64,000 nt of DNA from an uncultured Pelagibacteraceae bacterium. Lineage in GTDB: Bacteria > Pseudomonadota > Alphaproteobacteria > Pelagibacterales > AG-422-B15. Shown here piece after piece: positions 20,477 to 37,553 of this stretch (position 1 is its first letter; each line of letters begins with the position of its first letter). The notes beneath the pieces are model-generated. The model was given only the letters and a program-made list of their open reading frames with translations, was not told the DNA's origin and did no database searches. The translations under genes were made by a program, and so were the position numbers. Location of the stretch: contig CABYZG010000003.1 of the NCBI GenBank assembly GCA_902523455.1, positions 1,625-65,624 of the forward strand, given 5' to 3'.

Positions 20477-21313
20477 TTGAAATATTTGTCAGAAAATAGA
20501 TATAAAGGAGAGATAAAAGGTTTGGTATTAGACTGGAGTGGAACTACTGCTGACGCATACGTGATTGCTCCAACTATAGTGTTTGTTGAGGTTTTTAAGA
20601 AACAAAAGGTTGTAATCTCCATGGAAGAGGCAAGAGAACCCATGGGTTTACGAAAAGATTTACATATAAAAGCACTCACAGAGAACGCTGAAATAAGAAA
20701 GCGCTGGAACATAGTACATGGTAAAGACCCACAAATGTCTGATGTTGAAAATATGTACGCAGATTTTGTTCCACTGCAGCTTAAATGCTTAAAACAATAC
20801 TCAAAATTATTACCCGGAACAGCAGAAGTAATTAAACGGGTTCAAAATAGCGGTATAAAAGTTGGTTGCACAACTGGTTTTGTGCGGTCAATGGTTAATA
20901 TTTTAGAGGAAGAATCAGCAAAACAGGGATATGTCCCTGATGCGTCAGTTGCAGGTGATGATGTTAAAAATGGCGTTCGGCCCCTTCCCCACATGTTATA
21001 TAAAAATTTAGATATAATGAATATAGAATCCATTCAATCAGTTATAAAAGTTGATGATACTGTTTCAGGAATTGGAGAAGCAATTAATGCTGGTTGTTGG
21101 GGTGTTGGTGTAACGCGATATTCGAATTATATGAATATAAATTCCTTAAAAGAAGCTGATGAACTGAGTAAAGAAGAAATTGATATGAAACAAGGATATG
21201 CAAAAGATCTGCTTTATAAAGCAGGTGCGCATTACGTAATAGAAACTATTGCAGATATCGAGGCCGTTATTTATGATATTAACAAAAGGCTTTCACGTGG
21301 TGAAGGGCCTTAA
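20477..21313 (+). CDS. phnX: Phosphonoacetaldehyde hydrolase (phosphonatase)
   Basis: HAD motif DWSGTT, Schiff-base segment PMGLRKDLHI, KVDDTVSGIGEA, GAHYVIET. Confidence 0.9.
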   Translation: MKYLSENRYKGEIKGLVLDWSGTTADAYVIAPTIVFVEVFKKQKVVISMEEAREPMGLRKDLHIKALTENAEIRKRWNIVHGKDPQMSDVENMYADFVPLQLKCLKQYSKLLPGTAEVIKRVQNSGIKVGCTTGFVRSMVNILEEESAKQGYVPDASVAGDDVKNGVRPLPHMLYKNLDIMNIESIQSVIKVDDTVSGIGEAINAGCWGVGVTRYSNYMNINSLKEADELSKEEIDMKQGYAKDLLYKAGAHYVIETIADIEAVIYDINKRLSRGEGP

Positions 21314-21825
21314 AAGTTGATTACAAATTTTTCTTGTTCCTCTGTTTCAATTGTACCTGGCCGGCAATTCCTTACATGATTTATGCATTGGTTTGAATCT
21401 AGTCCTAGTGCCTTTAAAATAAGTGAAGCAAACATTCCAGATCTACCTAATCCAGCATAACAATGCAGGTAAACATTTTTATTGAGTTCTAACTGAGTAA
21501 CACAATCTCTGATAATTTGACTATATTCATTTTTTTTAATCTGAGCTGGAATACCATAGTTTTTTATGGGCATGCTGTAGGCCCTAACATTCTTCTCCTC
21601 TAGATCTTTATGGAACTGATTAATTTCAAAATTTCTAATTTCATTAAGTTCTATCAATGAAACAACGAGTAATATATTTAAGTCGATGATAATGGTTAAA
21701 TCTTTTTTATAAGTAAATTTATCAAATCTAGAATTACTGATACCTGGACAACTGGATATAACCAAATTACCAAGATTTTTTTTTGCTTTAATAATTTTCG
21801 AAAGCTTTATTTTAGTAAAGTTCAA
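21310..21825 (-). CDS. CDKN3-like/dual-specificity CX5R phosphatase
   Basis: SSCPG, PIKNYGIP, HCYAGLGRS, RNCRPGTIETEEQ; TTG start overlaps the phnZ TGA. Confidence 0.85.
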   Translation of the reverse strand: MNFTKIKLSKIIKAKKNLGNLVISSCPGISNSRFDKFTYKKDLTIIIDLNILLVVSLIELNEIRNFEINQFHKDLEEKNVRAYSMPIKNYGIPAQIKKNEYSQIIRDCVTQLELNKNVYLHCYAGLGRSGMFASLILKALGLDSNQCINHVRNCRPGTIETEEQEKFVINF

Positions 21826-22421
21826 ATATAGGACTTTTTAATAAAAGGATGAAAGAATGAAATAGCTTCAGTTTTCTTTCCCCTAATTTTTGCATTGTCA
21901 TCATACTTTCGAAGTCTTACTGCATCTTCAAAATATTTATGACTTTCCAGTTTTCGAATAGCATCTTTGTTTAAATATCCGCCTTGAAGTTTAAAACTTC
22001 TTTTGGAGCCATCTGAAAGACCGTCATAATAATCTGATTGAACGGAACATAGATATCTCTTTGCAATAACGTGCATTTTAATTGGGTAAGTAACTTCTTC
22101 AGGAAAATACTTGGATAAAAAAGATGCAGCAACGTTTTCATGATACTTGTCATTGTTTAAAAAATCATGGCTATTTACATCTTCGCCAGTCAACATATGC
22201 CCTAAATCGTGAAATAATGAAGCAGTAATAAATTTATCACTTTCATTATTTTCTTTAGCTAAGGTTGCGCACTGAAGAGCATGTTGTAATTGAGTAATCT
22301 CTTCGTCATAAAAACTGCACGAACCTCTTTGATCAATAATTTCACATAAAACATTGGTACGCTCAATAATTGAAGCTGAATTTAATTTATTTTCTAGAGA
22401 TTGGATTTTATCTAATTGCAT
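21822..22421 (-). CDS. phnZ: HD-domain diiron oxygenase of the PhnZ/TmpB family
   Basis: ITQLQHALQCA, LFHDLGH, HENVAA, HVIAKRYLC, LSDGSKRSFKLQGG, RKYDDNAK. Confidence 0.85.
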   Translation of the reverse strand: MQLDKIQSLENKLNSASIIERTNVLCEIIDQRGSCSFYDEEITQLQHALQCATLAKENNESDKFITASLFHDLGHMLTGEDVNSHDFLNNDKYHENVAASFLSKYFPEEVTYPIKMHVIAKRYLCSVQSDYYDGLSDGSKRSFKLQGGYLNKDAIRKLESHKYFEDAVRLRKYDDNAKIRGKKTEAISFFHPFIKKSYI

Positions 22422-22466
22422 GAATTAAATGATTAATTATATTTTCTTTAATGTCAATAATTTGAG

Positions 22467-22516
22467 CTGTAACATTAGTGTAATAAATTGCAAAATATCT
22501 GTAATAAAAATGCAAC
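22467..22516 (+). promoter_or_regulatory. Pho box array upstream of phnC
   Basis: Half-sites CTGTAAC 22467, GTGTAAT 22478, TTGCAAA 22488, CTGTAAT 22499, ATGCAAC 22510 (spacing 11,10,11,11). Confidence 0.7.
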
Positions 22517-22555
22517 TTTGATTTAATTTTTTTGTATTACTTTTTATTCATACTA

Positions 22556-23359
22556 ATGATCAAAGTAGAGAAATTAAATAAGTATTTTGGTGACAACCGT
22601 GCAGTAAACGATGTCACATTTGAAATTAATAAACCTGAAATGATTGGTATCATTGGCAGATCTGGTGCTGGAAAGTCAACATTACTGAGAATAATGAATC
22701 GTCTAACCGACGCAACTAGTGGATCTATTTTTATTGAAGGCAGAAATATACTTTCATTAACAAAGAAAGACAAACGAGCATGGCAAAAAGATTGTGCCAT
22801 GATATTTCAGCAATTCAATCTTGTGCCCCGTTTAGATGTTTTAACAAATGTAATTCTTGGAAGATCAAATATTCAAGGTACTTTACGATCAAGTTTAAAA
22901 CTTTTCACTAAAGATGAACGCGTTGATGCATTGATGGCTCTGGATAAATTGGGAATGGCTGAAACCGCGCTGCAAAGAGCAGAGACTTTATCTGGTGGAC
23001 AGCAACAAAGGGTTGCAATTTGTAGAGCTATGATGCAGCAACCAAAAATGATTTTAGCCGACGAGCCTATTGCATCGCTAGACCCTCTTAATGCCCGACT
23101 TGTAATGGAATCACTTAGAAATATTCATAGAGAAAAGCAGATTACTGTTCTTGCAAATCTTCATACTCTTGATACCGCTAAAAATTATTGTGACAGAATC
23201 ATTGGCATGAGACTTGGGGAAATTGTTTTTGATGATGTACCTTCAAGTTTAAAAGATGATGTTGCTAGAGAAATTTACGGCGCTGAAGCTGAAGAAGCAT
23301 TTGAACCAACAGTTACTTCAACTTCACTTGGTGACGAACAGTTTGCAGAGGCAGGATAA
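22556..23359 (+). CDS. phnC: Phosphonate ABC transporter ATPase
   Basis: [40 protein letters not shown]; start moved to ATG 22556. Confidence 0.95.
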
Positions 23360-23411
23360 TGTTAGCCTTTTCAAAAAAAAACTTAACAACTAACAAGGAG
23401 ATATACTAAAA

Positions 23412-24371
23412 ATGATTAAAAATTTAGTAAGGTCTATTATTGCTTGTTCATTCCTTTTCGTGTCTGCAAATGCATACGCATGGGATGTATCTGGCTATAA
23501 AGGGCCAACAATGGACTTGAGTAAATATCAACCTGAAATGAGACTTGGATTTTTAGGCGATGAATCAGCTCAAGACATTATTAAGAATAATGCATGTCTA
23601 AAGGAATATGCGGAAGTTGCATATGGAGTACCAGCTAAAATTTATACTTTTAAAGATTATGCAGGAACAATGGAGTCAATGCTTGGTGGCAGCTTAGATT
23701 ATGCTTGGTTTGGCTCATCAGGATATGCGGGTATATATCTAGAAGATCCTACCGCTACTGTACCAATTTTAACCAGAATGCAGCCAACAGGAGATATGGG
23801 CTATTATTCAGTCATGGTTACAAGATCAGACTCGGGTATCAATTCACTTGATGATTTAAAAGGTAAATCTTTTGGATGGGCTGATCCTAATTCAACATCT
23901 GGTTATCTAATACCATCAATCGAATTAAAAGCTGCAGGAATGGATCCAGACTCATACTTTGGCTCTACACAATTTTCAGGTGGTCATGAAAATAACGTTT
24001 TGGCAGTTCTTAATGGTGATATCGATGCAGGTGTGACATGGGTATCTGGAGTTGGTGAATGGAGCGAAGGTTACTCTTCTGGAAATCTGAGAAAAATGGT
24101 TGATAAAGGACTATTAAATATGGATGACATCAAACAGATTTGGTCATCTGCTTTGATACCAAATGGACCGATTGTAATGCCAACTAATATGCCTGTGAGA
24201 GCGCATCAGGTCATGGTAGGCATGAAGCAGTGGATCCATGAAAATGACCCACAATGCAGCGAGAATGTTGCAAATGGAGTTGTTAAAGCTTGGGTGCCAG
24301 TCGACCATAGTTTCTATGAAACTATTGTAGCTGCTCGTAAAGCTAAAATTGAAGCTAAAAAAGCCGAATAA
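23412..24371 (+). CDS. phnD: Phosphonate ABC transporter substrate-binding protein
   Basis: Signal peptide, DPNSTSGYLIP, FSGGHEN, strong AAGGAG SD. Confidence 0.93.
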   Translation: MIKNLVRSIIACSFLFVSANAYAWDVSGYKGPTMDLSKYQPEMRLGFLGDESAQDIIKNNACLKEYAEVAYGVPAKIYTFKDYAGTMESMLGGSLDYAWFGSSGYAGIYLEDPTATVPILTRMQPTGDMGYYSVMVTRSDSGINSLDDLKGKSFGWADPNSTSGYLIPSIELKAAGMDPDSYFGSTQFSGGHENNVLAVLNGDIDAGVTWVSGVGEWSEGYSSGNLRKMVDKGLLNMDDIKQIWSSALIPNGPIVMPTNMPVRAHQVMVGMKQWIHENDPQCSENVANGVVKAWVPVDHSFYETIVAARKAKIEAKKAE

Positions 24372-24394
24372 ATTTCGGTAGTTGTTTGCTAACT

Positions 24395-24422
24395 TAAGAG
24401 GATGGCATGCCCCATCCTCTTA
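24395..24422 (+). other. Intercistronic stem-loop between phnD and phnE
   Basis: TAAGAGGATGG-CATGCC-CCATCCTCTTA, 11-bp perfect stem; typical mRNA-stabilising element after an SBP gene. Confidence 0.65.
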
Positions 24423-24435
24423 GTTAGTTGTTTAT

Positions 24436-25302
24436 TTGGAGGAAACAGTGCAATCATCATTGCCAGAAAATTTAATTAAAATTGAAAATAATTTAAAATC
24501 TCTTACAAGAACAAGATCAATTTATTCTTTTCTCTCAATTGCGGCATTGATAGCAGTTATTTATTCGGGTTTAATTGTAGCAGAAACAGGAAATGCGACT
24601 AGCATCTGGGTTGGATTACCTAAATTTTTCGATTACCCAGTTGATCTATTTGTTGGGTCATGGGAATACGGCTATAGATGGAATTTATTGTTACTTGAAT
24701 ACCTTCCAGATTTAATAAGCACTATTAATATGGCTCTATTTTCAACAGCAATGGGTACGTTGCTAGCCTTTTTTTTAAGTATTTTTTCAAGTCGTAATCT
24801 AATCAAAAGTAAAACTACTGTATTAATATTTCGACGCATCATGGATATATGCAGATCGTTTCCAGAATTAGTTATTGCGCTTGTTTTGTTGTATCTACTG
24901 GGAAAGTCAGCACTGCCTGCTGTAATTGCCATCATAATTCATACCGCAGGAGCTCTTGGCAAACTGTTTTCAGAAGCTATTGAGAATGTGGACAAAAATC
25001 CAATTGAAGGTCTTGAGTCCTGTGGAGCTTCATGGTTTACCAGAATAAGATTTGGTGTGGTAACTCAGGCACTCCCTCTATTTCTAACTTACACAATTTT
25101 AAGATTTGAGATTAATATAAGGGCTTCAACTATTTTGGGATTTGTTGGCGCTGGAGGTATCGGTGAGCAACTTTACACTAATATACAGTGGAAATATGAA
25201 GCTGACACTATTGCAATAATGTTTTTACTTGTGTCTACGATCATTGCATTGGATTACTTATCAAGTTATTGGCGAAAATCATTAATAGGATTGAAATCAT
25301 GA
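24436..25302 (+). CDS. phnE: Phosphonate ABC transporter permease
   Basis: RSFPELVIAL, GALGKLFSEAIE, RFEINIRASTILGFVGAGGIG. Confidence 0.93.
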   Translation: MEETVQSSLPENLIKIENNLKSLTRTRSIYSFLSIAALIAVIYSGLIVAETGNATSIWVGLPKFFDYPVDLFVGSWEYGYRWNLLLLEYLPDLISTINMALFSTAMGTLLAFFLSIFSSRNLIKSKTTVLIFRRIMDICRSFPELVIALVLLYLLGKSALPAVIAIIIHTAGALGKLFSEAIENVDKNPIEGLESCGASWFTRIRFGVVTQALPLFLTYTILRFEINIRASTILGFVGAGGIGEQLYTNIQWKYEADTIAIMFLLVSTIIALDYLSSYWRKSLIGLKS

Positions 25303-26708
25303 ACAGGTCTGAAATTATTAAAAATTATTCAGATATAGTAGTTACTAAATTTTCATCTAAAATGTGGTCAACTTTTTTAGTGCTCGGGATTATAGTGTAT
25401 TTAATCATAGCAATTTTAAGCCTCGACATATTGCAGATTCATAAAAAATGGAGTCCTGAAAGAGCTTCATTGTTTGCCCTCGACACATATGCACATAAAG
25501 ACCATGTCACAATGAAATGGAGTGAACCAGATGATATAATTATATCCTTTGAAGGAAGCAGGTGGTCTCAGTATGTTGGCCCCTATCAAAAAAGTGACGG
25601 TCTTCCAGAAAGGTATCCTGAATGGACTTCCATAGGTCCAGAGGGTGAAACAAAAATAAGTTTTAAAAATGGAGGGTTTGCAAATCTATACGATGATAAA
25701 GTTACAATAGAAAACTGGCCAGACACCAAAGAAACACTTGTTTTTCGTCTTGATGCACAAGGTAAGCCTTACGTTGAAAATGTAGATAATCTCCCAAAAT
25801 GGATAAGGGTAACGGAAAATAAAATAGAGGTTAGACCATCTCTTTACGAAAGAGTTCAAGTTTATTCAAAAAAAGTTGAAGTACATAGGTACAATCTTGG
25901 TTGGAACTATTTCTGGTTTGACTTTGACAGTCCTTTAGAACCATATGGAATTTGGAATGCTATTTCACTTTCATTCTCAGGCGATAGAGTTGACCCCAAT
26001 ATTTCAAATTTTTCGCTTCTAATTCAAGAATTTCTAAATAATGATATGTGGCATCATGGACAAATATTGTGGGCTTTATTAGAGACAATTTTTATGGCTC
26101 TATTGGGCACCCTACTAGCAGCTCTTCTGGGTTTTCCTCTGGCATTTTTTGCAGCTTACAATGTAACGCCTTTTAAATTTGTTCGAACGATATTAAGACG
26201 GTTATTTGATACATTAAGAGGCATCGATTTTTTGATTTGGAGCTTAATTTTTTTAAGAGCCTTCGGACCAGGACCATTTACTGGAATATTTGCTATTGCA
26301 ATTACAGATACAGGAACTCTTGGAAAATTAATGTCTGAAGCAATAGAAAACACTGAAGAAAAGCAACAAGAAGGTGTAGAGTCTACGGGAGCGAATAAAA
26401 CTCTTCAACACAGATTTGGAATTATACCTCAAATACTTCCTATTTTTATTTCCCAAACTCTTTACTACTTAGAATCAAACACGAGAGGAGCTGTTATTAT
26501 AGGTGCCATGGGCGCAGGCGGCATAGGTTTACAATTACTTGGAGCAATAAATACGGGTACCAGTTGGGAAAATGTTATGTATATGTCATTATTGATTTTA
26601 GGAGTTGTTATTTTCATGGATACAATGTCCGCAAAAGTAAGAAGAGCTTTGATTGGTGATGAAACGCTAGGAGCAGAATTACAATTGGCAAAAATGGCAA
26701 AAAAATAA
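25299..26708 (+). CDS. phnE: Phosphonate ABC transporter permease with large periplasmic insert
   Basis: GTLGKLMSEAIE, ESNTRGAVIIGAMGAGGIG; ATG 25299 overlaps the upstream TGA. Confidence 0.9.
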   Translation: MNRSEIIKNYSDIVVTKFSSKMWSTFLVLGIIVYLIIAILSLDILQIHKKWSPERASLFALDTYAHKDHVTMKWSEPDDIIISFEGSRWSQYVGPYQKSDGLPERYPEWTSIGPEGETKISFKNGGFANLYDDKVTIENWPDTKETLVFRLDAQGKPYVENVDNLPKWIRVTENKIEVRPSLYERVQVYSKKVEVHRYNLGWNYFWFDFDSPLEPYGIWNAISLSFSGDRVDPNISNFSLLIQEFLNNDMWHHGQILWALLETIFMALLGTLLAALLGFPLAFFAAYNVTPFKFVRTILRRLFDTLRGIDFLIWSLIFLRAFGPGPFTGIFAIAITDTGTLGKLMSEAIENTEEKQQEGVESTGANKTLQHRFGIIPQILPIFISQTLYYLESNTRGAVIIGAMGAGGIGLQLLGAINTGTSWENVMYMSLLILGVVIFMDTMSAKVRRALIGDETLGAELQLAKMAKK

Positions 26709-26761
26709 TTTTTTTTTTGAGATCTTAATATTTTTTTAACAATCTATTTGTATCATTAATT

Positions 26762-27199
26762 ATGACCAAATTTATTCAATTCTTTTTAATAACGTCGTAC
26801 ATGTTATCATCTCTTGCTCTTGCAGACAGTCATGAAGACAATACAATTGGGCAAGCTGGAAGTGACTATTCTACCAATACTGAAAGTACATACGAGAGCA
26901 ATATAGGAAACTGTGAAGATTTAAGTGTATTAACGCTCCGTGGATCAGTTAAAAACGATATACAGCGAGCTGACCCAGATTCAGCAACGAAAGCACATAA
27001 TTTAATGCTTGAAGGAATGGAATTGTGTAATAAAAATCAAAACGTCCTTGCAAAAATGAAATTGAAAGAGGCTCAAACTATAGCGAGAGAAGGCAATGTT
27101 GCCGGACAAGATATGAGAATTGGAATTGTTAATGAGTCAGACGAACTGCAAGAAGAGACAGAAAATGAAAAAGAAAAGTCATGGTGGCAGATTTTTTAA
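26762..27199 (+). CDS. Hypothetical exported protein
   Basis: Signal peptide (SSLALA), two Cys, helical core, ends KSWWQIF. Confidence 0.7.
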   Translation: MTKFIQFFLITSYMLSSLALADSHEDNTIGQAGSDYSTNTESTYESNIGNCEDLSVLTLRGSVKNDIQRADPDSATKAHNLMLEGMELCNKNQNVLAKMKLKEAQTIAREGNVAGQDMRIGIVNESDELQEETENEKEKSWWQIF

Positions 27200-27544
27200 C
27201 TACACCTCTTCTAATAACGTACAAAAGCCAGGATCACTACCATTAAAAAAAGTTTCTAAATTAGAAGAACAGTGATTAATCACACATTGGTCTGACTCAT
27301 AAAAATAATCATCAATATTTTTAGCTGATTTAATATTCTGCAACATACAAAGACTATACTCATTGAAGTTACTGCTAGGATGAGTATTAAAATATATTTC
27401 ACAATTAATTATTGTCTCATCGTACCCTATTTCTAGAGATGAAGTGTTTTGAAAATAAGCTATACAACTCTTAAAGTCGTCAGCATAGATGTTTGTGCTC
27501 AGCAGAATTTTAAAAATGAAAATTAAAAGCACGAATCGTTTCAT
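27200..27544 (-). CDS. Hypothetical exported Cys-rich protein
   Basis: Signal peptide (TNIYA), six Cys in 114 aa. Confidence 0.6.
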   Translation of the reverse strand: MKRFVLLIFIFKILLSTNIYADDFKSCIAYFQNTSSLEIGYDETIINCEIYFNTHPSSNFNEYSLCMLQNIKSAKNIDDYFYESDQCVINHCSSNLETFFNGSDPGFCTLLEEV

Positions 27545-27581
27545 GTAATATTATTGTAATATTTCTTAACATTTTTGTAAT
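27543..27581 (+). promoter_or_regulatory. Possible Pho boxes upstream of the MFS gene
   Basis: ATGTAAT 27543, TTGTAAT 27554, TCTTAAC 27564, TTGTAAT 27575 (11,10,11); AT-rich context lowers specificity. Confidence 0.45.
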
Positions 27582-27676
27582 ATTTAAAAATTGGTAAACA
27601 ATCTATTTTTTAACTATTGTAAAAATAACAAATTTATTCAATGACTTATAAAAATAAATACTAAACAGGCATCAAG

Positions 27677-28888
27677 TTGAAAGAAAATAATAGTTTATTT
27701 CCTGTTCATACTATTGGAATTGTAACAATCATTGGTTACGGATTTTTATTCTATACTATTGCCCCATTAAAAGAGTATATCTCACTGCACACCAATTTAA
27801 GTGAGGAATTAATTCTCACAATGTTTAGTTTAGCACTGTTATTTCAAGCCCTATTAGCGCCTCGGATTGGAAAATGGTCAGACCATCATGGAAGCCTAAT
27901 CGTAATTAAATACGGCCTGTTATTAGGTATGATAGGCTCAATTTTTATTGGAATAACAGAGATTGATTTATTTATTTTCAAAAATGTATTGTGGGTGTTT
28001 ATTTCTATGTTTCTAATTACCTTGGGGCTTGGTATGTCAACCTATGAGGTGGCGTTTAATGCGGCAGTCCAAATGGATGAAATCAATTCTAGAAAAAATA
28101 TTTCAATAATTACTTTTTATGGAGCGGTAGCAAGCACTATTACCTGGCTTTCAATTTATCCACTTATATACAATGTAGGTTTATTCTATACGTGTTTATT
28201 TACTTCAATTATTTTATTAATTGGCTTTGTACTTGTGTCCTCAAAGGAAATGAAATACAAATCAAATATAGAATACTTAAATGAAAGTAAGTTATTATTT
28301 AATTGGAATGAGCTAAAGAAGACACAAAAGAAATCATTTTTTTATATTACAATATCCTCTTCTTTACAAAATTTCTTTTTTGTAGCATTTACCCTTGCAT
28401 TAGTAAATTTTTTTACAGAAACATTTAATGACATTAGTATCGCGGTTGTACTTGCGAGTATATATGGCCCGTTTCAACTTGTAGGAAGATACTTGGAAAT
28501 GAAAATTGGAAAGCATTACGACGCAAGATATACAGGCTTAATAGCCTTTTTGTTTGTAATTTTTTCAATTTTTACAGCTCAATTTACAAATAATATTTTT
28601 GTTGCCGCAATTAGTATGGCTTTTTTCGGAATGGGTCACGGTGTTTTAACAATAACATATGGTTATGTCACCAATATGTATTTTGAGTCACAAATTTATG
28701 GCCAAGCTAAAGGGTGGATGGCCCTTTCAAGGAGCATTAGCTTTGCCGTAGGTCCAGCATTAGGTGCACTTCTTTTTGCGTATAATTTAAACTTATTTAC
28801 GATTACGATTGTAATAACTGCAATCCTATCAGCGTTTTCTTTCTCACTAATAATTTTCGAGAAACCTACAAATCAAATGCACAAATAA
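27677..28888 (+). CDS. MFS transporter, ArsK-like
   Basis: About 12 TM; IIGYGFLFY, APRIGKWSDHHG, ITFYGAVASTITW, YGPFQLVGR resemble the ArsK-type MFS pattern. Confidence 0.7.
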   Translation: MKENNSLFPVHTIGIVTIIGYGFLFYTIAPLKEYISLHTNLSEELILTMFSLALLFQALLAPRIGKWSDHHGSLIVIKYGLLLGMIGSIFIGITEIDLFIFKNVLWVFISMFLITLGLGMSTYEVAFNAAVQMDEINSRKNISIITFYGAVASTITWLSIYPLIYNVGLFYTCLFTSIILLIGFVLVSSKEMKYKSNIEYLNESKLLFNWNELKKTQKKSFFYITISSSLQNFFFVAFTLALVNFFTETFNDISIAVVLASIYGPFQLVGRYLEMKIGKHYDARYTGLIAFLFVIFSIFTAQFTNNIFVAAISMAFFGMGHGVLTITYGYVTNMYFESQIYGQAKGWMALSRSISFAVGPALGALLFAYNLNLFTITIVITAILSAFSFSLIIFEKPTNQMHK

Positions 28889-29597: not shown

Positions 29598-29671
29598 TTG
29601 TAACATATTTTTAATAAATAAATTGAAACGAATCGTCATAATAAGTATAGTATACTTGTATAGTTGTATAG
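29598..29671 (+). promoter_or_regulatory. phnG promoter: Pho-like pair, -10 and candidate PhnF operator
   Basis: TTGTAAC-ATAT-TTTTAAT (29598-29615), CATAAT 29637-29642, palindrome AAGTATAGTATACTT 29643-29657 followed by two TTGTATAG repeats. Confidence 0.5.
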
Positions 29672-29677
29672 ATTAAT

Positions 29678-30109
29678 ATGGAAAGAAAATTTTGGCTTAG
29701 TACATTGGCTACATGCAATGATGCCCACCTAACTTCTCTTTGGGAAAAATTTGGTATTGAGGTAAATTTCACATGGCTTAGAAAGCCGGAAATAGGCAGT
29801 ATAATGTGTCAAGGAAAAATTGGAGTAACAGGAAATAATTTCAATTTTGGTGAAGTTACTATTACCCGTTGTCAATTGAAAACCTCACAAGGAAAAATTG
29901 GTCACGGATACGTGCAAGGAAGAAATAAATATAAGGCTGAAATTGTTGCTATATGCGATGCTTTACTGCAAACAAATAAAAGAGATTTTTTAATCAAAAA
30001 TATAATACGCCCTCTAGTTGTAAGCGATAAAAATTTAAAAAAAGATGTAATGTCAAAATCAGAGTCAACAGCTGTCGATTTCTTTACATTGGTGCGAGGT
30101 GAAACTTGA
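29678..30109 (+). CDS. phnG: C-P lyase subunit PhnG
   Basis: RKPEIGSIMCQGK, FNFGEVTITRC, AICDALLQ. Confidence 0.92.
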   Translation: MERKFWLSTLATCNDAHLTSLWEKFGIEVNFTWLRKPEIGSIMCQGKIGVTGNNFNFGEVTITRCQLKTSQGKIGHGYVQGRNKYKAEIVAICDALLQTNKRDFLIKNIIRPLVVSDKNLKKDVMSKSESTAVDFFTLVRGET

Positions 30110-30665
30110 AATGATTAATACAAATGAAAACGAGTCTATTATAAAAGCCGATGCATTCAGAGCTATATTGTTTGCAACTTCTTATCCTGGATCAATTGAA
30201 AAGTTTTTAGAGATAAATAAACCTAAACAAATTTCTACATCTTCAGCTTCTATTTTGTCCACTATGTGCGATCACACCAGCACCATTTATATTGGAAAAT
30301 CATTAGACACTAAATCCTTAAGAGATTGGGTAGCCTTTCATACAAACTCTAAAATAGTAGATAAAAAATTTGCAAATTTTGCAATTGGTACTTTCCATGA
30401 CATGTTGCCCCTTACAGAGTTCTCTAGAGGATCAGACGAGTTTCCGGATAGATCATGTACATTAATAATTGAGACACCCTTTAAATCAGACAATGTAAGT
30501 ATTTCGGGGCCCGGTATCAAAGGTAGCAAAGATATCTACTTACCACATGCGAATAAAATAAGTGATGTAAATAACTCCTTCCCCCTTGGTATAGATTTCT
30601 ATTTTACCAATAAAAGCAATTTTTTTTGCATTCCAAGATCAATAAAAATTAAAAAGAAAGGATAG
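30099..30665 (+). CDS. phnH: C-P lyase subunit PhnH
   Basis: FRAILFATSYPG, GSDEFPDRSCTLII, GPGIKG, FPLGIDF, IPRS. Confidence 0.9.
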   Translation: MKLEMINTNENESIIKADAFRAILFATSYPGSIEKFLEINKPKQISTSSASILSTMCDHTSTIYIGKSLDTKSLRDWVAFHTNSKIVDKKFANFAIGTFHDMLPLTEFSRGSDEFPDRSCTLIIETPFKSDNVSISGPGIKGSKDIYLPHANKISDVNNSFPLGIDFYFTNKSNFFCIPRSIKIKKKG

Positions 30666-30670
30666 TTTCT

Positions 30671-31741
30671 ATGTATGTAGCTGTTAAAGGTGGTGAAAAA
30701 GCAATTGAAAATGCTCATAATTGGCTTTCAGAAATAAGGAGAGGTGATGTTAATGTTCCCAACCTCGAAATTGATCAAATTAAAGAACAGTTGACATTGT
30801 CTGTTGAAAGGGTCATGTCAGAAGGATCATTATATGATACTGATCTAGCAGCTCTCGCCATAAAACAATCAAGAGGTGACCTTATTGAAGCCATCTTCTT
30901 AATCAGGGCCTATCGTACAACTCTACCAAGATTTGGAACATCCCCCCCTATTAAAACAGAAGATATGGTATGCATGAGAAGAATCTCAGCAACTTATAAA
31001 GATATTCCTGGAAAACAAAAATTGGGGCCTACATTTGATTATACACACAGACTTTTAGACTTTAGTTTACTGGCTGAAGGCAATATACCTAAGGCAGAAA
31101 AACGAAAAGTATTAAAGGAAAAAATACCTCACGTACTGAGATTTTTAAATAAAGAAGGCCTTATTCAAAAAGAAAAAAATAATAATTATCAGCCAAAAGA
31201 CATCACAAGAAATCCACTTGAGTTTCCAGCTAATAGAAGTGAGAGGTTACAATCACTTTCTAGAGCCGATGAAGGATTTCTTCTTGCTTTAGCTTATTCA
31301 ACTCAAAGAGGCTACGCTAGAAATCATGCTTTTGTAGGTGAATTAAGAATTGGTTATGTAAAAGTTAAGTACAACATTCCAGAATTAGACATTGAGATCG
31401 ATATTGCAGAAATAATTGTTACTGAGTGCGAGAGTGTAAATCAATTTCAAGGAAGCAAAAAAACACCCGCACAATTTACACGAGGATATGGTTTGACATT
31501 TGGTCAATTAGAAAGAAAGGCAGTATCAATGGCCCTAGTCGATAGGGCATTAAGGTGGAAAGAAATTGGTGAAGAGTTTGTCGGAGCACCTGCTCAGGAT
31601 GAAGAGTTTGTATTGTCACATTGTGATAATATACAGGCAACTGGGTTTTTGGAACATTTAAAGTTACCCCATTATGTTGATTTTCAATCAGAGCTGGAAT
31701 TGGTTAGAAGAATTCGTAAAGAGTATGAGAAAAACAAATAA
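30671..31741 (+). CDS. phnI: C-P lyase subunit PhnI
   Basis: MYVAVKGGEKAIENAH, RAYRTTLP, DEEFVLSHCD, HLKLPHYVDFQSEL. Confidence 0.96.
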   Translation: MYVAVKGGEKAIENAHNWLSEIRRGDVNVPNLEIDQIKEQLTLSVERVMSEGSLYDTDLAALAIKQSRGDLIEAIFLIRAYRTTLPRFGTSPPIKTEDMVCMRRISATYKDIPGKQKLGPTFDYTHRLLDFSLLAEGNIPKAEKRKVLKEKIPHVLRFLNKEGLIQKEKNNNYQPKDITRNPLEFPANRSERLQSLSRADEGFLLALAYSTQRGYARNHAFVGELRIGYVKVKYNIPELDIEIDIAEIIVTECESVNQFQGSKKTPAQFTRGYGLTFGQLERKAVSMALVDRALRWKEIGEEFVGAPAQDEEFVLSHCDNIQATGFLEHLKLPHYVDFQSELELVRRIRKEYEKNK

Positions 31742-32615
31742 CGTAATTAAGATTAAAGATTTCAAAGTAGACAAAGGTCTACCTTTTGATCAAGAATATA
31801 ATTTTGCGTATTTAGATGAGAATACAAAAAAAATGATAAGACGTGCAATAATAAAAGCTTTATGTATTCCAGGTTATCAGGTTCCTTTTGCCTCTAGAGA
31901 AATGCCTATGCCATATGGATGGGGAACAGGTGGAGTCCAAGTTACTGCGAGCTGCTTAACAAAAAGAGACACTTTAAAAATAATAGATCAGGGAGCTGAC
32001 GATACTACCAACGCTGTATCAATAAGAAATTTTTTCAAAAAAACTTCAAATATTAAAACTACTGAAATTACTGAAAAAGCAACACTGATACAAACTAGAC
32101 ATAGAATTCCTGAAACACCATTAAAAAAGAAACAAATATTTGTTTATCAGGTACCCATCCCTGAACCCTTGGCCTTTCTAGAACCTAAAGTATCTGAAAC
32201 AATAAAAATGCACTCTCTTTCCGAATATGGCGCAATGCACGTAAAGCTCTATGAAGATATATCAAAAAATGGGCATATAGAAACCGCTTACGCTTATCCA
32301 GTAAAAACTAATGATCGTTATATAATGGATCCATCCCCAATACCAAAATTTGATAATCCTAAAATGAATAACTCACCAGCGATACAGCTATTTGGTGCTG
32401 GAAGAGAACAAAGAATTTATGCTATTCCACCATATACAAAAGTTAAAAGTCTCGATTTTGAAGACTACCCATTTGACCCATTTAAAGCTGAACACGCGTG
32501 TGATATTTGTGGATCAAAGAATACATATTTAGATGAAATTATTGTTGATGATGCGGGAAATAAATCTTTTATTTGCTCAGATACAGATTTTTGTAATAAA
32601 AGAAAAAATAAATGA
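31725..32615 (+). CDS. phnJ: C-P lyase radical SAM subunit PhnJ
   Basis: PGYQVPFASREMPMPYGWGTGG, CX2CX21CX5C cluster motif; probable start 31725. Confidence 0.96.
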   Translation: MRKTNNVIKIKDFKVDKGLPFDQEYNFAYLDENTKKMIRRAIIKALCIPGYQVPFASREMPMPYGWGTGGVQVTASCLTKRDTLKIIDQGADDTTNAVSIRNFFKKTSNIKTTEITEKATLIQTRHRIPETPLKKKQIFVYQVPIPEPLAFLEPKVSETIKMHSLSEYGAMHVKLYEDISKNGHIETAYAYPVKTNDRYIMDPSPIPKFDNPKMNNSPAIQLFGAGREQRIYAIPPYTKVKSLDFEDYPFDPFKAEHACDICGSKNTYLDEIIVDDAGNKSFICSDTDFCNKRKNK

Positions 32616-33382
32616 TAATCCCTCTTTTAAAAGTTACAAATTTAAGCAAATCTTATGATAATATTGTTGGATGTAAAAATATTTCAATGTCACTATATCC
32701 AGGTGAAGTATTGGGCATTGTCGGTGAGTCTGGTTCCGGTAAAACAACCTTAATTAACTGCTTATCCGGCAATCTTGAGCCTGATAGAGGAAAAATAATT
32801 TTCAATATTAACAACAAAGAAACCGACTTTTTAAATATATCAGAGTCAGAGAAAAGAAAATTTATTAGAACAGATTTAGCTTTTGTTCATCAAAACCCAC
32901 GTGACGGATTAAGATTAAATGTATCAGCAGGTGGTAATATAGGCGAAAAATTAATGTCTGTTGGCTATAGACATTATGGAAATATAAGAAGCTTAGCAAC
33001 AAAATGGATTAATAAAGTTGAAATAGACAAAAGTAGAATTGATGATCTACCCATTACTTTCTCAGGTGGAATGCTTCAAAGACTTCAAATAGCAAAAAAT
33101 CTAATAACAAGCCCAAATGTTATTTTTATGGATGAACCAACTGGTGGGCTAGATGTTTCAGTTCAAGCTCGTGTTCTTGATTTGATAAGATCACTTGTTA
33201 ATGAGTTGAACCTTACAGTAATTATTGTATCACATGATTTAGCCGTTATCAGATTACTTGCAGATAAAATGATTGTCATGAAAAACGGTACTGTAATCGA
33301 GTCTGGTTTAAGCGATCAGGTACTTGAAGATCCTCAGCAAGAATATACACAGCTATTAGTAAGTTCGGTGTTACACGTTTAA
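32612..33382 (+). CDS. phnK: C-P lyase ATPase PhnK
   Basis: GESGSGKTT, HQNPRDGLR, FSGGMLQRLQIA, DEPTGGLDVSVQAR. Confidence 0.95.
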   Translation: MIIPLLKVTNLSKSYDNIVGCKNISMSLYPGEVLGIVGESGSGKTTLINCLSGNLEPDRGKIIFNINNKETDFLNISESEKRKFIRTDLAFVHQNPRDGLRLNVSAGGNIGEKLMSVGYRHYGNIRSLATKWINKVEIDKSRIDDLPITFSGGMLQRLQIAKNLITSPNVIFMDEPTGGLDVSVQARVLDLIRSLVNELNLTVIIVSHDLAVIRLLADKMIVMKNGTVIESGLSDQVLEDPQQEYTQLLVSSVLHV

Positions 33383-33383
33383 T

Positions 33384-34058
33384 ATGATTGAGGTAAAAAA
33401 AGTTAATAAATCGTTTACTTTATTTAACCAAAATAACGCGAAGATAACAGTTTTTAAAAATTTAAATTTTGAGGTTAATCCAGGTGAAATTGTAGCCCTT
33501 AAAGGACCATCAGGCATAGGTAAATCAAGTATTTTAAAGATGATTTATGGAAGTTATATAATTGATAAGGGTGCTATAATTATAAATAATAAAAATATTG
33601 CCACTCTATCGGCTCAGGAAATACTTAAACTTAGAAAAACTTCAATTGGGTATGTGAGCCAATTTTTAAAAGTGATACCCCGTATTTCTGCTTTAGATGT
33701 AATAATGGAACCATTATTAAATTCAGGTGATAATAAAAATAATGCTTATAAAAAATCGATAAAACTTTTAAAGGACTTAAATATTGAGAAGAATTTGTGG
33801 CACTTATCTCCGCTAACTTTTTCTGGGGGCGAGCAACAGAGAATTAATATCGCACGAGGTTTTATAAAAGACCTTCCTTACTTGTTACTCGATGAGCCAA
33901 CTGCAAGTCTTGACAGTAGAAATCGTGATATAATTATCAATTTAATTAAAGCGAAATCTAATAGAGGCGTATCAATTATTGGAATCTTTCATGACGAATA
34001 TTCTCGAAAAAAGTTGAATGTAAGAGAGATTGATCTAAACATTGAAACAAAGCATTAA
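33384..34058 (+). CDS. phnL: C-P lyase ATPase PhnL
   Basis: GPSGIGKSS, YVSQFLKVIPR, FSGGEQQRINIARGF, GIFHD. Confidence 0.95.
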   Translation: MIEVKKVNKSFTLFNQNNAKITVFKNLNFEVNPGEIVALKGPSGIGKSSILKMIYGSYIIDKGAIIINNKNIATLSAQEILKLRKTSIGYVSQFLKVIPRISALDVIMEPLLNSGDNKNNAYKKSIKLLKDLNIEKNLWHLSPLTFSGGEQQRINIARGFIKDLPYLLLDEPTASLDSRNRDIIINLIKAKSNRGVSIIGIFHDEYSRKKLNVREIDLNIETKH

Positions 34059-34593
34059 AAGAAACGGCAAGGCTTTTATCGTCTTAGGTCCATCAGGATC
34101 TGGTAAAAATACCCTTATAAATGGAGCCTGTAAAAATATCGATAATCTAAAGGCGATCAAAAGATACATTACAAGAACTAAAATAGATATTAATGAAGAC
34201 TATAACCCTATTGATGAAAAAATATTTACACAAATGAAGAGTGAAAATTTATTTTGTACAACATGGAATGCAAATAATTGCAATTATGGTATTCACAAAG
34301 ATGCAATTGACGATCTTAAAGATGGGAAAAACATAATATTTGCTGGATCTAGAGAATATATAAATAATATATTATATGATATATCCTCTTCTATCGTTAT
34401 ACACATAAATGCTACTAGCAATTTATTGAGTCAACGAATTTTTGATAGAAAAAGAGAGAACGAATTCGAAATCAACTCTCGAATAAAAAGAGAAAATTAT
34501 AATTTACCAACAAGTACAAAATTTGTAGAAAATAATAGCAGTATTAATCAAGGTATTATGAATTTAACTGCATTAATTAAAAGTTTAATTTAA
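34042..34593 (+). CDS. phnN: Ribose 1,5-bisphosphokinase PhnN
   Basis: GPSGSGKNTL, RYITR, W.ANNCNYGI, GSREY. Confidence 0.85.
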   Translation: MKQSIKRNGKAFIVLGPSGSGKNTLINGACKNIDNLKAIKRYITRTKIDINEDYNPIDEKIFTQMKSENLFCTTWNANNCNYGIHKDAIDDLKDGKNIIFAGSREYINNILYDISSSIVIHINATSNLLSQRIFDRKRENEFEINSRIKRENYNLPTSTKFVENNSSINQGIMNLTALIKSLI

Positions 34594-35293
34594 ACCTTTT
34601 TATTTCCTCAAAATGGCCATTTTTATTTTCACCAAGTAAACTAATTTCATTAAATTCAATTACATTATTTGATATTTTGTAAATTAATTTTTCTAGTTCT
34701 AATTTTTGTTTGTTAGATAATTTATTGTTATTTTGGTTCATTAGCGTCATATGAAATTTAAACTGATCAAAGACGAATGGATATCCCCACTCTTTTAAAT
34801 ATTTGTTTTGCTTAATAGTTAAAGAATCAGGGATCCTTTTTTTTATTTCTGTTTTATTTAGCTCTGCCCTAAAAGTATCTAGATGTTTAACAAGATCATT
34901 CTCAAGGTTTATTAATAATTTGTTTGGTTTTCTGCTAGTTATGAAAGTAAATTTTTTACTATAAACAATTTTTAAACCTTGTATCTTAAATCTACTATGT
35001 TGTGCTGCTATATGGCTAATAACATCATAAAAATTTTTTGTTTTAACATTTCTTTTAAGTCTAAATGGTGCCTTTAATGTTGCGTGAAACCCATACTTTG
35101 CAGGCTGTTCACAATAGTCTTTAAGTTCATCAAAGAATGTAAAACCTCTACTAATAAAATATTTTTGACGTCTTGTTAGTGATATTTTTTTCTTTTTATT
35201 GATATCTCTACCTAAAAGGTTTTTTCCGAAGTTTTCTAAACTCGAGTTTTTTTTAGGCAAAAAGTAAATTGCCACTCTTTTGTAATTAGTCAT
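34577..35293 (-). CDS. DUF1045 2H-phosphoesterase (probable PhnP analogue)
   Basis: RVAIYFLP, YGFHATLKAPFRL, WGYPFVFDQFKFHMTL. Confidence 0.88.
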   Translation of the reverse strand: MTNYKRVAIYFLPKKNSSLENFGKNLLGRDINKKKKISLTRRQKYFISRGFTFFDELKDYCEQPAKYGFHATLKAPFRLKRNVKTKNFYDVISHIAAQHSRFKIQGLKIVYSKKFTFITSRKPNKLLINLENDLVKHLDTFRAELNKTEIKKRIPDSLTIKQNKYLKEWGYPFVFDQFKFHMTLMNQNNNKLSNKQKLELEKLIYKISNNVIEFNEISLLGENKNGHFEEIKRFKLNF

Positions 35294-35326
35294 AATACTT
35301 TAACAATAATCTAATAAATTAGTAAT
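35287..35326 (+). promoter_or_regulatory. Degenerate Pho-like 11-bp repeats upstream of phnM
   Basis: TAGTCAT 35287, CTTTAAC 35298, ATCTAAT 35309, TAGTAAT 35320. Confidence 0.4.
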
Positions 35327-35342
35327 ATCTTGTTAAATAAAT

Positions 35343-36485
35343 ATGAATGAATTTGTAATAAAAAATGCCCATATTGTTTGTCCGGACGAATCTTTTATGG
35401 GCCATGTTTACATTGCAAACGGTATAATAAAGGATTTAAGTAAAGGAAATTATACAGGAAATTCTGCTTTCGATTTAAACAAGGATTTCTTAATTCCTGG
35501 TTTAATCGAACTTCATACAGATAATATCGAAAGACATTTAACACCCAGGCCAAAAGTAGAATGGCCAATTATAAACGCATTGCTAGCTCATGATAGAGAA
35601 TTGTCTTCCGTCGGTATAACCACGGTATTTGATGCACTTAGAGTTGGATCGATACCAAAAGGGAACCTTCAAGGTGAATATAAAAAATATGCTAAAGCAA
35701 CAGCTGACCAAATTTCAACTTTAAAAAAAAATAAACTTTTTAAAATTGACCATTATATTCACTTGCGTGCAGAAACCGCATCTGAAACGTTAGCAAGTGA
35801 ACTTGATGAGTTTGATGAATCAAGCAACGTTAAAATGATAAGCATTATGGACCATACACCGGGACAAAGACAATTTAGAAATACAGATAAATATAAGGAA
35901 TATTTAGCGGGTAAATATCAACTATCTGATGAAGAAATGGAAAATCACTTCTCTAAATTAAAAGCACTGCAGTCAAAAAATAGTGAAATACATATAAAGA
36001 AAATATCTGAAGCACAAATGAGATTTCAATGTGTTCTTGCGAGTCATGATGACACTACTATAGAAGATGTATTAAGTTCAAAAAATCTAGGAGTTTCAAT
36101 AGCAGAATTTCCAACCACAATCGAAGCAGCAAAAGAGTCGCAAAAAGAAGACATGAAAATTATCATGGGTTCGCCAAATTTAATGAGAGGTGGGTCACAT
36201 TCTGGAAATATTTCAGCTCAAGAACTCATAGACGAAAATTGCCTTGATATTTTTAGCTCTGACTATATCCCGTCATCCCTACTTTCTTCAGCTGTCAAAT
36301 GGGGTTTAGAGTCCGGTAATATGCCAAAAGCAATTGCCTCTATTTCAAGAAACCCAGCAATAGCTACACAGCTTCTAGACCGAGGTAGTATACAGTGCGG
36401 CATGAAGGCGGACCTAGTTAGTTTCAGTATTTATAACAATTTACCAATAGTAAAAAAAGTATGGGTATCTGGACAAGCGATATAA
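35343..36485 (+). CDS. phnM: Alpha-D-ribose 1-methylphosphonate 5-triphosphate diphosphatase
   Basis: PGLIELHTDNIE, MDHTPGQRQF, ASHDD, AEFPTT, GGSHSGN, SSDYIP. Confidence 0.96.
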   Translation: MNEFVIKNAHIVCPDESFMGHVYIANGIIKDLSKGNYTGNSAFDLNKDFLIPGLIELHTDNIERHLTPRPKVEWPIINALLAHDRELSSVGITTVFDALRVGSIPKGNLQGEYKKYAKATADQISTLKKNKLFKIDHYIHLRAETASETLASELDEFDESSNVKMISIMDHTPGQRQFRNTDKYKEYLAGKYQLSDEEMENHFSKLKALQSKNSEIHIKKISEAQMRFQCVLASHDDTTIEDVLSSKNLGVSIAEFPTTIEAAKESQKEDMKIIMGSPNLMRGGSHSGNISAQELIDENCLDIFSSDYIPSSLLSSAVKWGLESGNMPKAIASISRNPAIATQLLDRGSIQCGMKADLVSFSIYNNLPIVKKVWVSGQAI

Positions 36486-37124
36486 TTAATCGTAAAATCG
36501 AAGAATAAAATATGCAATTAAGAGACCAATTAATTGCATAAAAATAAACATCAACACGTGCTGTGGATCTATACCGGTAAATGTGTTGGTGAATGATCTA
36601 CTGATCGTGACAGCTGGATTGGCAAATGACGTTGAAGATGTGAACCAATAAGCCCCAGTTATATATAAAGCCACCGCTATTGCTGGATCTCTTTTTGCCT
36701 TTAGTGTGAGCACAATTGTAATTAATAAGCCTATTGTTGCAACCACTTCAGAGACATGAATATTAATTCCTGTTCTTTCTTTAGTTGAAAATTCAATAAA
36801 TAAATCATCAAAAATATAATTTGCTAAAATGACTCCAGAAGTGCCACCCACTAGTTGAAAAATGATAAATAATATCATCGTTACGTTATTAATATCTGAT
36901 TTAAATCTAAAATAAAGTGTAACAACTGGATTAAAATGAGCTCCAGATATAGGACCAAATATTGATATTATCACGTAAAGCATTGCTCCTGTTGCTATTG
37001 CATTAGCAAGCAATACAACACCTTCATTTGTAGGAGATAGATTTTCGGCCATTATCCCTGATCCTACTACCGAGAAAACAAGTAAGAGTGTACCCAGATA
37101 TTCAGAAAGTATTTTTTTAGGCAT
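36486..37124 (-). CDS. Aquaporin/MIP channel (AqpS-like, ars-associated)
   Basis: SGAHFNPVVT and TSFANPAVT loops; directly downstream of arsC. Confidence 0.85.
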   Translation of the reverse strand: MPKKILSEYLGTLLLVFSVVGSGIMAENLSPTNEGVVLLANAIATGAMLYVIISIFGPISGAHFNPVVTLYFRFKSDINNVTMILFIIFQLVGGTSGVILANYIFDDLFIEFSTKERTGINIHVSEVVATIGLLITIVLTLKAKRDPAIAVALYITGAYWFTSSTSFANPAVTISRSFTNTFTGIDPQHVLMFIFMQLIGLLIAYFILRFYD

Positions 37125-37553
37125 TTATTTAAGCAAATTTTCTTTTATTAATTGATCAATATAATCAAATGTAGATCTAAAAAACTTTTTGTGATCGACT
37201 TCGTTTAAGTTCTGTTTAACGGGGTCTTCAATATTGAAATGAAATGTTTTTGGAGCACCCGGCCAGATCGGACATGTTTCTTTAGCGGCATTTCCACACA
37301 CAGTAACGACATAATCCATAGAGGGAGAGTTGGGCTCACCAAATACGTCCCAACTTTTACTATAGAGTTTCTCAGTCGGTATTTTCATATCATCTAATAA
37401 ATCGAGTGTTTTAGGATTTATTATTCCTGAAGGTGTGCTACCAGCGCTATAGCCTTTCAGACTTTCACTATATTTATAATTGGTAATTGCCTCAGCTATA
37501 ATGCTTCTGGCTGAATTTTGCGTACATAAATATAAAACATTTTTAATGCTCAT
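37125..37553 (-). CDS. arsC: Arsenate reductase, LMW-PTP/thioredoxin type
   Basis: LCTQNSARS (CX5R), TVCGNAAKETCP redox Cys pair, EDP. Confidence 0.9.
   Translation of the reverse strand: MSIKNVLYLCTQNSARSIIAEAITNYKYSESLKGYSAGSTPSGIINPKTLDLLDDMKIPTEKLYSKSWDVFGEPNSPSMDYVVTVCGNAAKETCPIWPGAPKTFHFNIEDPVKQNLNEVDHKKFFRSTFDYIDQLIKENLLK

Follow-up and report, generated by a model that had tools for sequence, protein, structure and literature searches.

Why would a bacterium place genes of the arsenic type among its genes for phosphorus acquisition? This question is raised by a 64-kb stretch of DNA from an uncultured Pelagibacteraceae bacterium (contig CABYZG010000003.1; the whole stretch is referred to below as the window). 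The window covers the phosphorus island of a warm-water SAR11 lineage, Pelagibacter Ia.3 (HTCC7211-like). Four of its genes are of concern here: an arsenate reductase gene (arsC), an aquaporin gene, a gene for a permease of the major facilitator superfamily (MFS) that is related to the arsenite exporter ArsK, and a gene for a Cys-based dual-specificity phosphatase. SAR11 bacteria are the most abundant heterotrophs of surface oceans poor in phosphate, in which the concentration of arsenate rivals that of phosphate. A preliminary description of the window had proposed that each of its phosphorus-import modules is paired with an arsenic safeguard. The gene content, coordinates, gene couplings and Pho-like boxes on which that proposal was built all hold. 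We consider it about an even chance that the island is a PhoB-controlled phosphorus-scavenging system with an arsenic-detoxification layer wired to the Pho regulon and not to ArsR. The "integrated As-proofing system" of the earlier headline goes beyond the evidence: a safeguard is present on Pst and plausible on PhnCDE, and the pairing fails for phnZ and the phosphatase, PhnZ being an enzyme and not an importer.

The pstSCAB-phoU-phoB operon (37550-43510, minus strand, transcribed pstS first; identified from open reading frames (ORFs) and their translations) is continued by arsC (37125-37553, minus strand) and the aquaporin gene (36486-37124, minus strand) as its final two cistrons. The stop codon of phoB and the start codon of arsC overlap in the sequence ATGA, and the TAA of arsC directly abuts the ATG of the aquaporin gene. 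Pattern scanning revealed a Pho-box array, CTGTAAT-AAAA-CTGTTAT-AAAC-ATGTAAC, 5′ of pstS (43547-43574, minus strand), and we infer that arsC and the aquaporin gene are co-transcribed with the pst-pho operon.

The arsC product is a thioredoxin-type arsenate reductase with the fold of low-molecular-weight protein tyrosine phosphatases (LMW-PTPs), with matches to Pfam LMWPc and, as the best NCBIfam family, arsC_pI258_fam. It contains the loop C10-TQNSA-R16-S (CX5R) together with C86 and C93, the equivalents of Cys82 and Cys89, and so has the full ArsC motif. Its score for the pI258 family (TIGR02691) was 64.5 bits against a cut-off of 174.3 bits, and it is a divergent branch. Its best match among PDB sequences was 8P5N, deposited as "low molecular weight phosphatase family protein", and the next ones were solved arsenate reductases (1JL3, 1LJL and others). 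The aquaporin (Pfam MIP) is 48% identical to an aquaporin within a plasmid-borne ars cluster of Sinorhizobium fredii; as a MIP channel that adjoins arsC and is homologous to ars-operon aquaporins, it is of the AqpS type.

Giovannoni et al. 2019 (PMC6426599) report that in most SAR11 strains of ecotype Ia.3 LMWPc_ArsC is followed by AqpS; they also report arsenate resistance of HTCC7211 and a SAR11 arsC gene frequency that climbs with falling phosphate. The genes, their order, the Ia.3 lineage and the relation to phosphate are thus the same as in the window, and the Pho-controlled safeguard on Pst claimed in the preliminary description, for which the junctions and the Pho box speak, had in this sense been published. 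The pair is given there as adjacent, whereas here it is coupled to phoB. What we add to an ArsC-AqpS pair already known in SAR11 is the translational coupling to phoB at the end of a pst-pho operon preceded by a Pho box. The arsR-aqpS-arsC-arsH operon of Sinorhizobium likewise has an aquaglyceroporin in place of ArsB/Acr3 next to an LMW-PTP-type ArsC; in contrast to it, the window has neither arsR nor arsH, and its arsC-aquaporin pair is appended to pstSCAB-phoU-phoB. No ArsR homologue was detected in the window by tblastn, in agreement with the preliminary description.

The whole window was scanned with the pattern TGTAAYN5TGTWAY, built from the 11-bp-phased repeats 5′ of pstS and phnC. Such boxes exceed chance: four exact matches were found in 64 kb against 0.15 expected, and 20 matches against 5.3 expected when one mismatch was allowed. 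All four exact matches lie in promoter regions, namely those of pstS, phnZ/phnC (two boxes in the divergent promoter region, 22468-22516, plus strand), the MFS gene and a gene for a DUF3576 lipoprotein. As two of these promoters, those of pstS and phnC, had supplied the pattern, only the matches at the MFS gene and the DUF3576 gene are independent. The match at the MFS gene (27544-27560) is in the sense orientation, directly 5′ of the gene and inside a four-repeat array TGTAAT / TGTAAT / TTAACA / TGTAAT in 11-bp phase (27544-27590, plus strand), 87-133 bp 5′ of the start codon. The arrangement typical of the Pho regulon, at least two 7-bp direct repeats in 11-bp phase within a promoter, is therefore found at pstS, phnC/phnZ and the MFS gene. 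The match ahead of the DUF3576 lipoprotein gene (49596-50093, minus strand; match at 50105-50132, minus strand) suggests that this gene, which has no assigned function, may be another Pho-regulated one.

Arsenic genes under Pho boxes, with no ArsR, would amount to an inverted control logic, which we report here as new. A parallel is offered by arsenite-oxidising bacteria, in whose arsenic islands genes of the pst, pho and phnCDEE groups are found (Li et al. 2013, PMC3834237). The linkage of ars with pst/pho and phnCDEE is shared, and on the plasmid of strain NT-26 ars genes adjoin pstS-phoB. There, however, phosphorus genes are contained in ArsR/AioR-controlled arsenic islands of soil bacteria, while here arsenic genes are contained in a Pho-controlled island of an oligotroph lacking arsR.

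The preliminary description had next placed an ArsK-like MFS exporter on the phosphonate transporter. The MFS gene (27677-28888, plus strand), placed between phnCDEE-hyp145 and the genes for C-P lyase, encodes a protein with 12 transmembrane segments predicted from hydropathy. ArsK was its best NCBIfam family (E 3.5e-33) and the sole strong named match, the next family scoring 20 bits. The ArsK score itself (NF033733) was 115 bits, with an equivalog cut-off of 400 bits. Every other member of the marine MFS family that was tested also matched ArsK by far best, at 110-138 bits. In a neighbour-joining tree the marine proteins formed a clade apart from ArsK. They are 21-23% identical to ArsK and to the MFS proteins of ars operons, whereas the members of the ArsK clade that were compared are 27-69% identical to Agrobacterium ArsK. 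Given the score and the separate clade at such identity, the permease is not a member of the ArsK family. It belongs to a distinct marine family, sister to ArsK, which is new here. Conserved intramembrane residues of this family are uncharged and polar (Tyr, Ser, Trp, Gln, His, Thr), and conserved charged residues are located in loops. Such a core hints, weakly, at a neutral hydroxylated solute and not an organophosphate anion. The conserved charged residues were considered as a substrate site and rejected on account of their loop positions and resemblance to motif A repeats.

The genomic surroundings of the MFS family were analysed in 80 genome loci, 17 of them copies of the Pelagibacter island and 63 from elsewhere. 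Genes of the phnCDEE transporter and/or of C-P lyase were found within 10 kb of the MFS gene in 12 of the 63 non-Pelagibacter loci. Across Alpha- and Gammaproteobacteria there are at least five arrangements in which the family adjoins C-P lyase genes or phnCDEE followed by hyp145, a gene for a small secreted protein. In one alphaproteobacterial arrangement phnCDEE-hyp145 is followed by one or two genes and then by the MFS gene; in another group of Alphaproteobacteria the MFS gene and hyp145 converge with phnCDEE; in a further arrangement the MFS gene converges with phnM. A single operon, phnCDEE-hyp145-LMW-PTP-MFS, is present in Litoricola, Oceanospirillales, Litorivicinaceae and Wenzhouxiangella, and Pho-box-like sites were found 5′ of phnC in gammaproteobacterial operons that end in the MFS gene. 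A metagenome scan seeded with the Litoricola MFS protein returned three loci, two of which adjoin phn genes. At a Sargasso Sea station, a metagenomic study listed the HTCC7211 MFS gene and phn genes among over-represented genes without commenting on them; in the same study arsenite efflux genes were enriched alongside phosphorus genes in low-phosphate Prochlorococcus populations.

A link of the family with arsenic genes was found in one Litoricola genome among the 80 loci, where the gene lies in an arsR-arsC-MFS-arsH operon. The ArsH product scored over its equivalog cut-off, the MFS stop codon overlaps the arsH start codon, and the ArsC of this operon is 50% identical to that of the window. 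The order arsR-arsC-MFS-arsH is preserved in every one of four independent assemblies whose MFS proteins are 86, 68, 64 and 60% identical to this one, so that the arrangement spans identities from 99% to 60%. The six ars-operon members retain 55 of the 63 amino acid positions that are conserved at 95% or more elsewhere in the family, and therefore are not a divergent offshoot. Among plasmid relatives, the surroundings of six of the closest were examined; five were ArsK or unnamed ArsK-like MFS proteins in ars clusters of Burkholderia, Methylorubrum, Sinorhizobium, Agrobacterium and strain NT-26. An ArsH homologue (66% and 49% identity; L030, 3890-4612, and L049, 1758-2489) was also observed in two SAR116-type loci, 5-6 kb 5′ of the MFS gene, with a glycerophosphodiesterase gene and three other genes in between.

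Compared with Agrobacterium ArsK, an exporter of arsenite and methylarsenite, the window permease is likewise a 12-transmembrane MFS protein, with ArsK as its only strong full-length named match, and the coupling of the permease gene to arsH is common to the Agrobacterium, NT-26 and Litoricola operons. The differences are that the window gene has a Pho box in place of ArsR control and is located in a phosphonate locus and not in an ars operon with arsH; residence in an ars operon is a property of the Litoricola-type family members. The earlier claim of an arsenic-type permease on the phosphonate transporter is thus supported in part: the permease falls outside the ArsK family, and its kinship with arsenic-type permeases stands, as does the recurrence beside phnCDEE-hyp145.

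The model that we favour would operate as follows. Phosphate starvation turns on Pst; arsenate that leaks in would be reduced by ArsC to As(OH)3, which would exit down its gradient through the AqpS-type channel. The MFS permease would export trivalent arsenicals in a proton-coupled manner, so that active efflux would complement the passive channel, and it may take care of arsenate that leaks through a poorly discriminating PhnD/PhnCDE. PhnD-type proteins bind phosphate, phosphite and methylphosphonate and have a looser hydrogen-bond network than PstS (PMC10284923), and for this reason should discriminate poorly against arsenate. The family context, the Pho box and the recurrent synteny make a pairing of PhnCDE with an arsenic-type exporter plausible, and we would give equal weight to the permease being or not being a Pho-controlled exporter of trivalent arsenicals.

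A number of observations weigh against assigning an arsenic substrate to the permease. It falls under the ArsK cut-off and is only 21-23% identical to ArsK, which makes a transfer of substrate from ArsK weak. Lys32, at the end of the first transmembrane segment, is invariant elsewhere in the family but replaced by Ala in the ars-operon members. Placement in ars operons is confined to one, Litoricola-like, lineage. Most SAR116 copies are solitary among unrelated neighbours, with no Pho box detected 5′ of them, and a Pho-box scan 5′ of the MFS gene in the 63 non-Pelagibacter loci gave just three doubtful matches, so Pho control of the stand-alone SAR116 copies is unsupported. Pelagibacter has ArsC and AqpS anyway. 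The neighbours of the family include phosphorus-salvage enzymes (GDPD, PHP, histidine phosphatase and a CbiR-like TIM barrel). The sixth plasmid relative, from Pseudosulfitobacter plasmid pSMR1-5, is an ArsK-clade MFS protein (288 bits) encoded in a phn-like cluster (1654-8002) with genes for a PhnD-like binding protein, an ABC ATPase, PhnE, a methyltransferase, a PhnM homologue and a CbiR-like TIM-barrel protein. In view of these salvage neighbours and the Pseudosulfitobacter cluster, the substrate may be phosphorus-related. A CbiR-like TIM-barrel gene was also seen next to the marine MFS gene in several other loci (L038-L044).

The third proposed safeguard was the dual-specificity phosphatase encoded at 21310-21825 (minus strand), identified by Pfam, an AlphaFold model and a family alignment. 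Its gene is coupled to phnZ as described earlier: the phnZ TGA stop codon overlaps the TTG start codon of the phosphatase gene, which in turn converges with phnX with a 4-base overlap. The protein contains the CX5R loop HCYAGLGRSG and scored 46 bits for Pfam PTP-SAK and 23.5 bits for CDKN3, over the 20.7-bit cut-off of the latter. The model (pLDDT 92) had human KAP/CDKN3 (1FPZ, TM-score 0.77) as its top structural match in the PDB. An exhaustive search placed it in a very large family of dual-specificity phosphatases of about 170 residues, in which its relatives beyond its own cluster of 95% or more are at most 38% identical.

The preliminary description compared the phosphatase with VarH, and its account of VarH is accurate: in the var operon of Vibrio cholerae (arsR-varG-varH-arsJ; PMC9601151), VarH is a Cys-based dual-specificity phosphatase, with human KAP/CDKN3 as its nearest solved fold. 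The likeness is one of general fold: both proteins are KAP-like with a CX5R loop. They differ in that no arsR is near the window gene and the window protein lacks the general-acid Asp. As VarH reportedly occurs in Vibrionaceae only (PMC9601151), the fold is the one feature shared. The 80 best genome loci of the phosphatase included none from Vibrio, and in none of the 80 was arsR, LMW-type arsC, arsH or acr3 found within 6 kb (gapdh and arsJ were not searched for). tblastn against plasmids gave just generic CDKN3-family or ADP-ribosylglycohydrolase-fusion matches with uninformative context.

The relatives are instead tied to phosphorus genes. Seven SAR116 genomes have PTP-phnC-phnD-phnE-phnE-hyp145 (PTP being the phosphatase gene) with Pho-box-like sites upstream; in two loci phnZ-plcP-agt-x-PTP converges with phnCDEE-hyp145; one locus has PTP beside C-P lyase and phnCDEE genes, and another DUF1045-phnM-PTP. 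A Pelagibacter paralogue adjoins plcP-agt. The general-acid Asp (PIxD) is replaced by Asn (residue 89) in all four Pelagibacter phosphatases, and the phn-linked SAR116 proteins keep it; the replacement would favour substrates with good leaving groups, without identifying them. Most likely, to judge from sequence and gene context, the protein is a Pho-regulon enzyme of marine Alphaproteobacteria, a cytoplasmic phosphoesterase acting in phosphorus salvage. A VarH-like arsenic role is unsupported, and this part of the preliminary proposal is dropped. The coupled gene (21822-22421, minus strand) encodes a PhnZ-like HD-domain oxygenase, for which PhnZ-type NCBIfam families were best at 152-188 bits, all under their cut-offs; no phnY partner was found in the window. 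This gene heads phnZ-plcP-agt-x-PTP in SAR116 and is translationally coupled to phnG in Litoricola.

The secreted 145-residue protein hyp145 (26762-27199, plus strand) has two invariant Cys residues and no Pfam or NCBIfam family match. In marine alpha- and gammaproteobacterial phnCDEE operons its gene always follows phnE2 directly (loci L021, L038, L052, L067-L072, L086-L094, L111, L137, L169 and L177); the C-terminus is KPWWKFW in the former and a transmembrane anchor in the latter. In the gammaproteobacterial operons an LMW-PTP, C11, with a single Cys (LCSGNYFRS), is encoded between hyp145 and the MFS gene (L066-L068, L070, L072 and L177). An assignment of C11 to ArsC was rejected, since the protein has that single Cys, is closest among solved structures to YwlE-type phosphatases and matches ArsC with E values of about 0.2. 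That marine phnCDEE operons repeatedly have the MFS family, hyp145 and a CX5R phosphatase attached to them is a new observation.

How far this attachment has to do with arsenic depends on how its members are read. One possibility, which we consider less likely than the favoured model, is that only arsC and the aquaporin gene are arsenic-related and that the MFS permease and the phosphatase are phosphorus-scavenging accessories of marine phnCDEE, the phosphatase (of dual-specificity type in Alphaproteobacteria and LMW-PTP type in Gammaproteobacteria) freeing phosphate from imported organophosphorus or from headgroups released by PlcP and the permease moving a phosphorus compound or its dephosphorylated product. 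This would account for the fact that phosphatase and permease are each tied to phnCDEE-hyp145 and not to one another, for the phnZ-plcP-agt-x-PTP and DUF1045-phnM-PTP operons, for the absence of the Cys82/Cys89 pair from C11 and its closeness to YwlE-type enzymes, and for the GDPD, PHP, histidine phosphatase and CbiR-like phosphodiesterase genes beside the MFS gene, as well as the ArsK-clade permease of the Pseudosulfitobacter phn-like cluster. It is at odds with the conserved arsR-arsC-MFS-arsH operons, in which the core of the protein is unchanged, with the nearest relatives of the permease being MFS proteins of ars clusters, and with the family lacking the conserved intramembrane Arg or Lys that would be expected of a carrier of organophosphate anions. 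An explanation by island assembly only, with Pho-regulated and niche genes accumulating in an exchangeable cassette and the permease and phosphatase having no functional tie to phosphonate or arsenic, is in our view improbable. The region from phnX to the aquaporin gene (about 20449-37124) is indeed 95-100% identical among single-cell genomes in which the proteins of its flanks share just 58-82% identity (to the left SDR and PNPOx, to the right arsC, phoB and phoU), as a recent exchange of the cassette would leave it; one genome with the Pelagibacter island has neither phnX nor the phosphatase gene, and phoR, ppx, ppk, plcP and agt are packed into the window too. But SAR116, other Alphaproteobacteria and Gammaproteobacteria show the same pairings in arrangements of their own, for which hitch-hiking in one cassette is insufficient.

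At the opposite end, PhnCDE could co-import arsenate and methylarsonate, a CX5R enzyme reduce or release them, and the MFS permease export a trivalent or organic arsenical. We regard this as unlikely, and the methylarsonate idea as such is speculation. On its side are two unrelated CX5R folds in the same niche beside phnCDEE and the MFS gene, which resembles analogous displacement; the position of C11, which in Gammaproteobacteria holds the exact arsC slot of arsR-arsC-MFS-arsH; the coupling of ArsH, by family a methylarsenite oxidase, to the MFS gene in Litoricola and to ArsK in Agrobacterium; and the precedent of VarH as a KAP-like phosphatase in arsenate resistance. PMC6426599 reports an approximately 2-fold increase of HTCC7211 phnD with dimethylarsenate and the suggestion that C-P lyase might act on methylated arsenic. 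However, none of the arsenic genes searched for was found near the 80 phosphatase relatives, VarH is reported from Vibrionaceae alone, and in the loci examined the phosphatase and MFS genes never adjoin outside Pelagibacter. In the literature searched, no link of methylarsonate with PhnD or C-P lyase was found. To our knowledge no bacterial methylarsonate reductase is known, which also counts against this explanation. It is correspondingly doubtful that the accessory set as a whole, hyp145, a CX5R enzyme (dual-specificity in Alphaproteobacteria, LMW-PTP in Gammaproteobacteria) and the ArsK-related permease, would form a PhoB-driven reduce-and-export safeguard against co-imported arsenate and methylarsonate. 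Control of the whole set would lie with PhoB and not with ArsR. Such a safeguard would include a methylarsonate reductase, the first one in bacteria, and the expectation for it is just as low.

Should the permease be the Pho-controlled arsenical pump of the favoured model, the capacity of the SAR11, SAR116 and Litoricola lineages to handle arsenic would go beyond the two genes known up to now; PMC6426599 counts two SAR11 arsenic genes, with no ArsK-related MFS mentioned there. Arsenic efflux would then be budgeted within the phosphorus-starvation response and not within an arsenic response, which would matter for the speciation of arsenic in the sea and for what phosphonate use costs the cell, hence for methane release from methylphosphonate. 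Arsenic aside, hyp145, the CX5R phosphatase and the MFS permease are three unstudied genes now marked as parts of marine phosphonate acquisition.

The remaining features of the island are as follows. The window has a G+C content of about 32%; over a length of 21 kb it is 99.7% identical to a contig from the single-cell genome of an uncultured member of the Pelagibacteraceae, and the locus is also present in 16 other Pelagibacteraceae assemblies. The cassette begins with phnX, for phosphonoacetaldehyde hydrolase (20477-21313, plus strand; TIGR01422, 281.6 bits, over the cut-off of 220). The phnC-phnD-phnE-phnE2 genes (22532-26708, plus strand), identified from their translations, encode an ABC importer of phosphonate, phosphite and phosphate whose orthologues in related loci are 50-78% identical. 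The second PhnE (25269-26708, plus strand) has 479 residues, with an N-terminal extension of about 230 residues, and its related-locus orthologues have 444-475 residues. Between hyp145 and the MFS gene lies the gene for hyp114, a small secreted Cys-rich protein of 114 residues (27200-27544, minus strand), which was found only in Pelagibacter loci. ORF and family searches identified phnF (28889-29590, minus strand), phnGHIJKLN of the C-P lyase pathway (29678-34593, plus strand), a DUF1045 gene (34577-35293, minus strand) and phnM (35343-36485, plus strand). The lipid-remodelling genes agt (51415-52422) and plcP (52423-53241) are located farther away.

Two further observations concern the surroundings of pstS. 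A gene for a TMEM164-family membrane protein (43592-44314, minus strand) is located between pstS and phoR. The pstS-pstC spacer (42366-42436) contains a long inverted repeat (CAACAACTGAGACAAGC...GCCTCAGTTGTGG), which may form a transcript-processing or attenuation hairpin that sets the excess of pstS.

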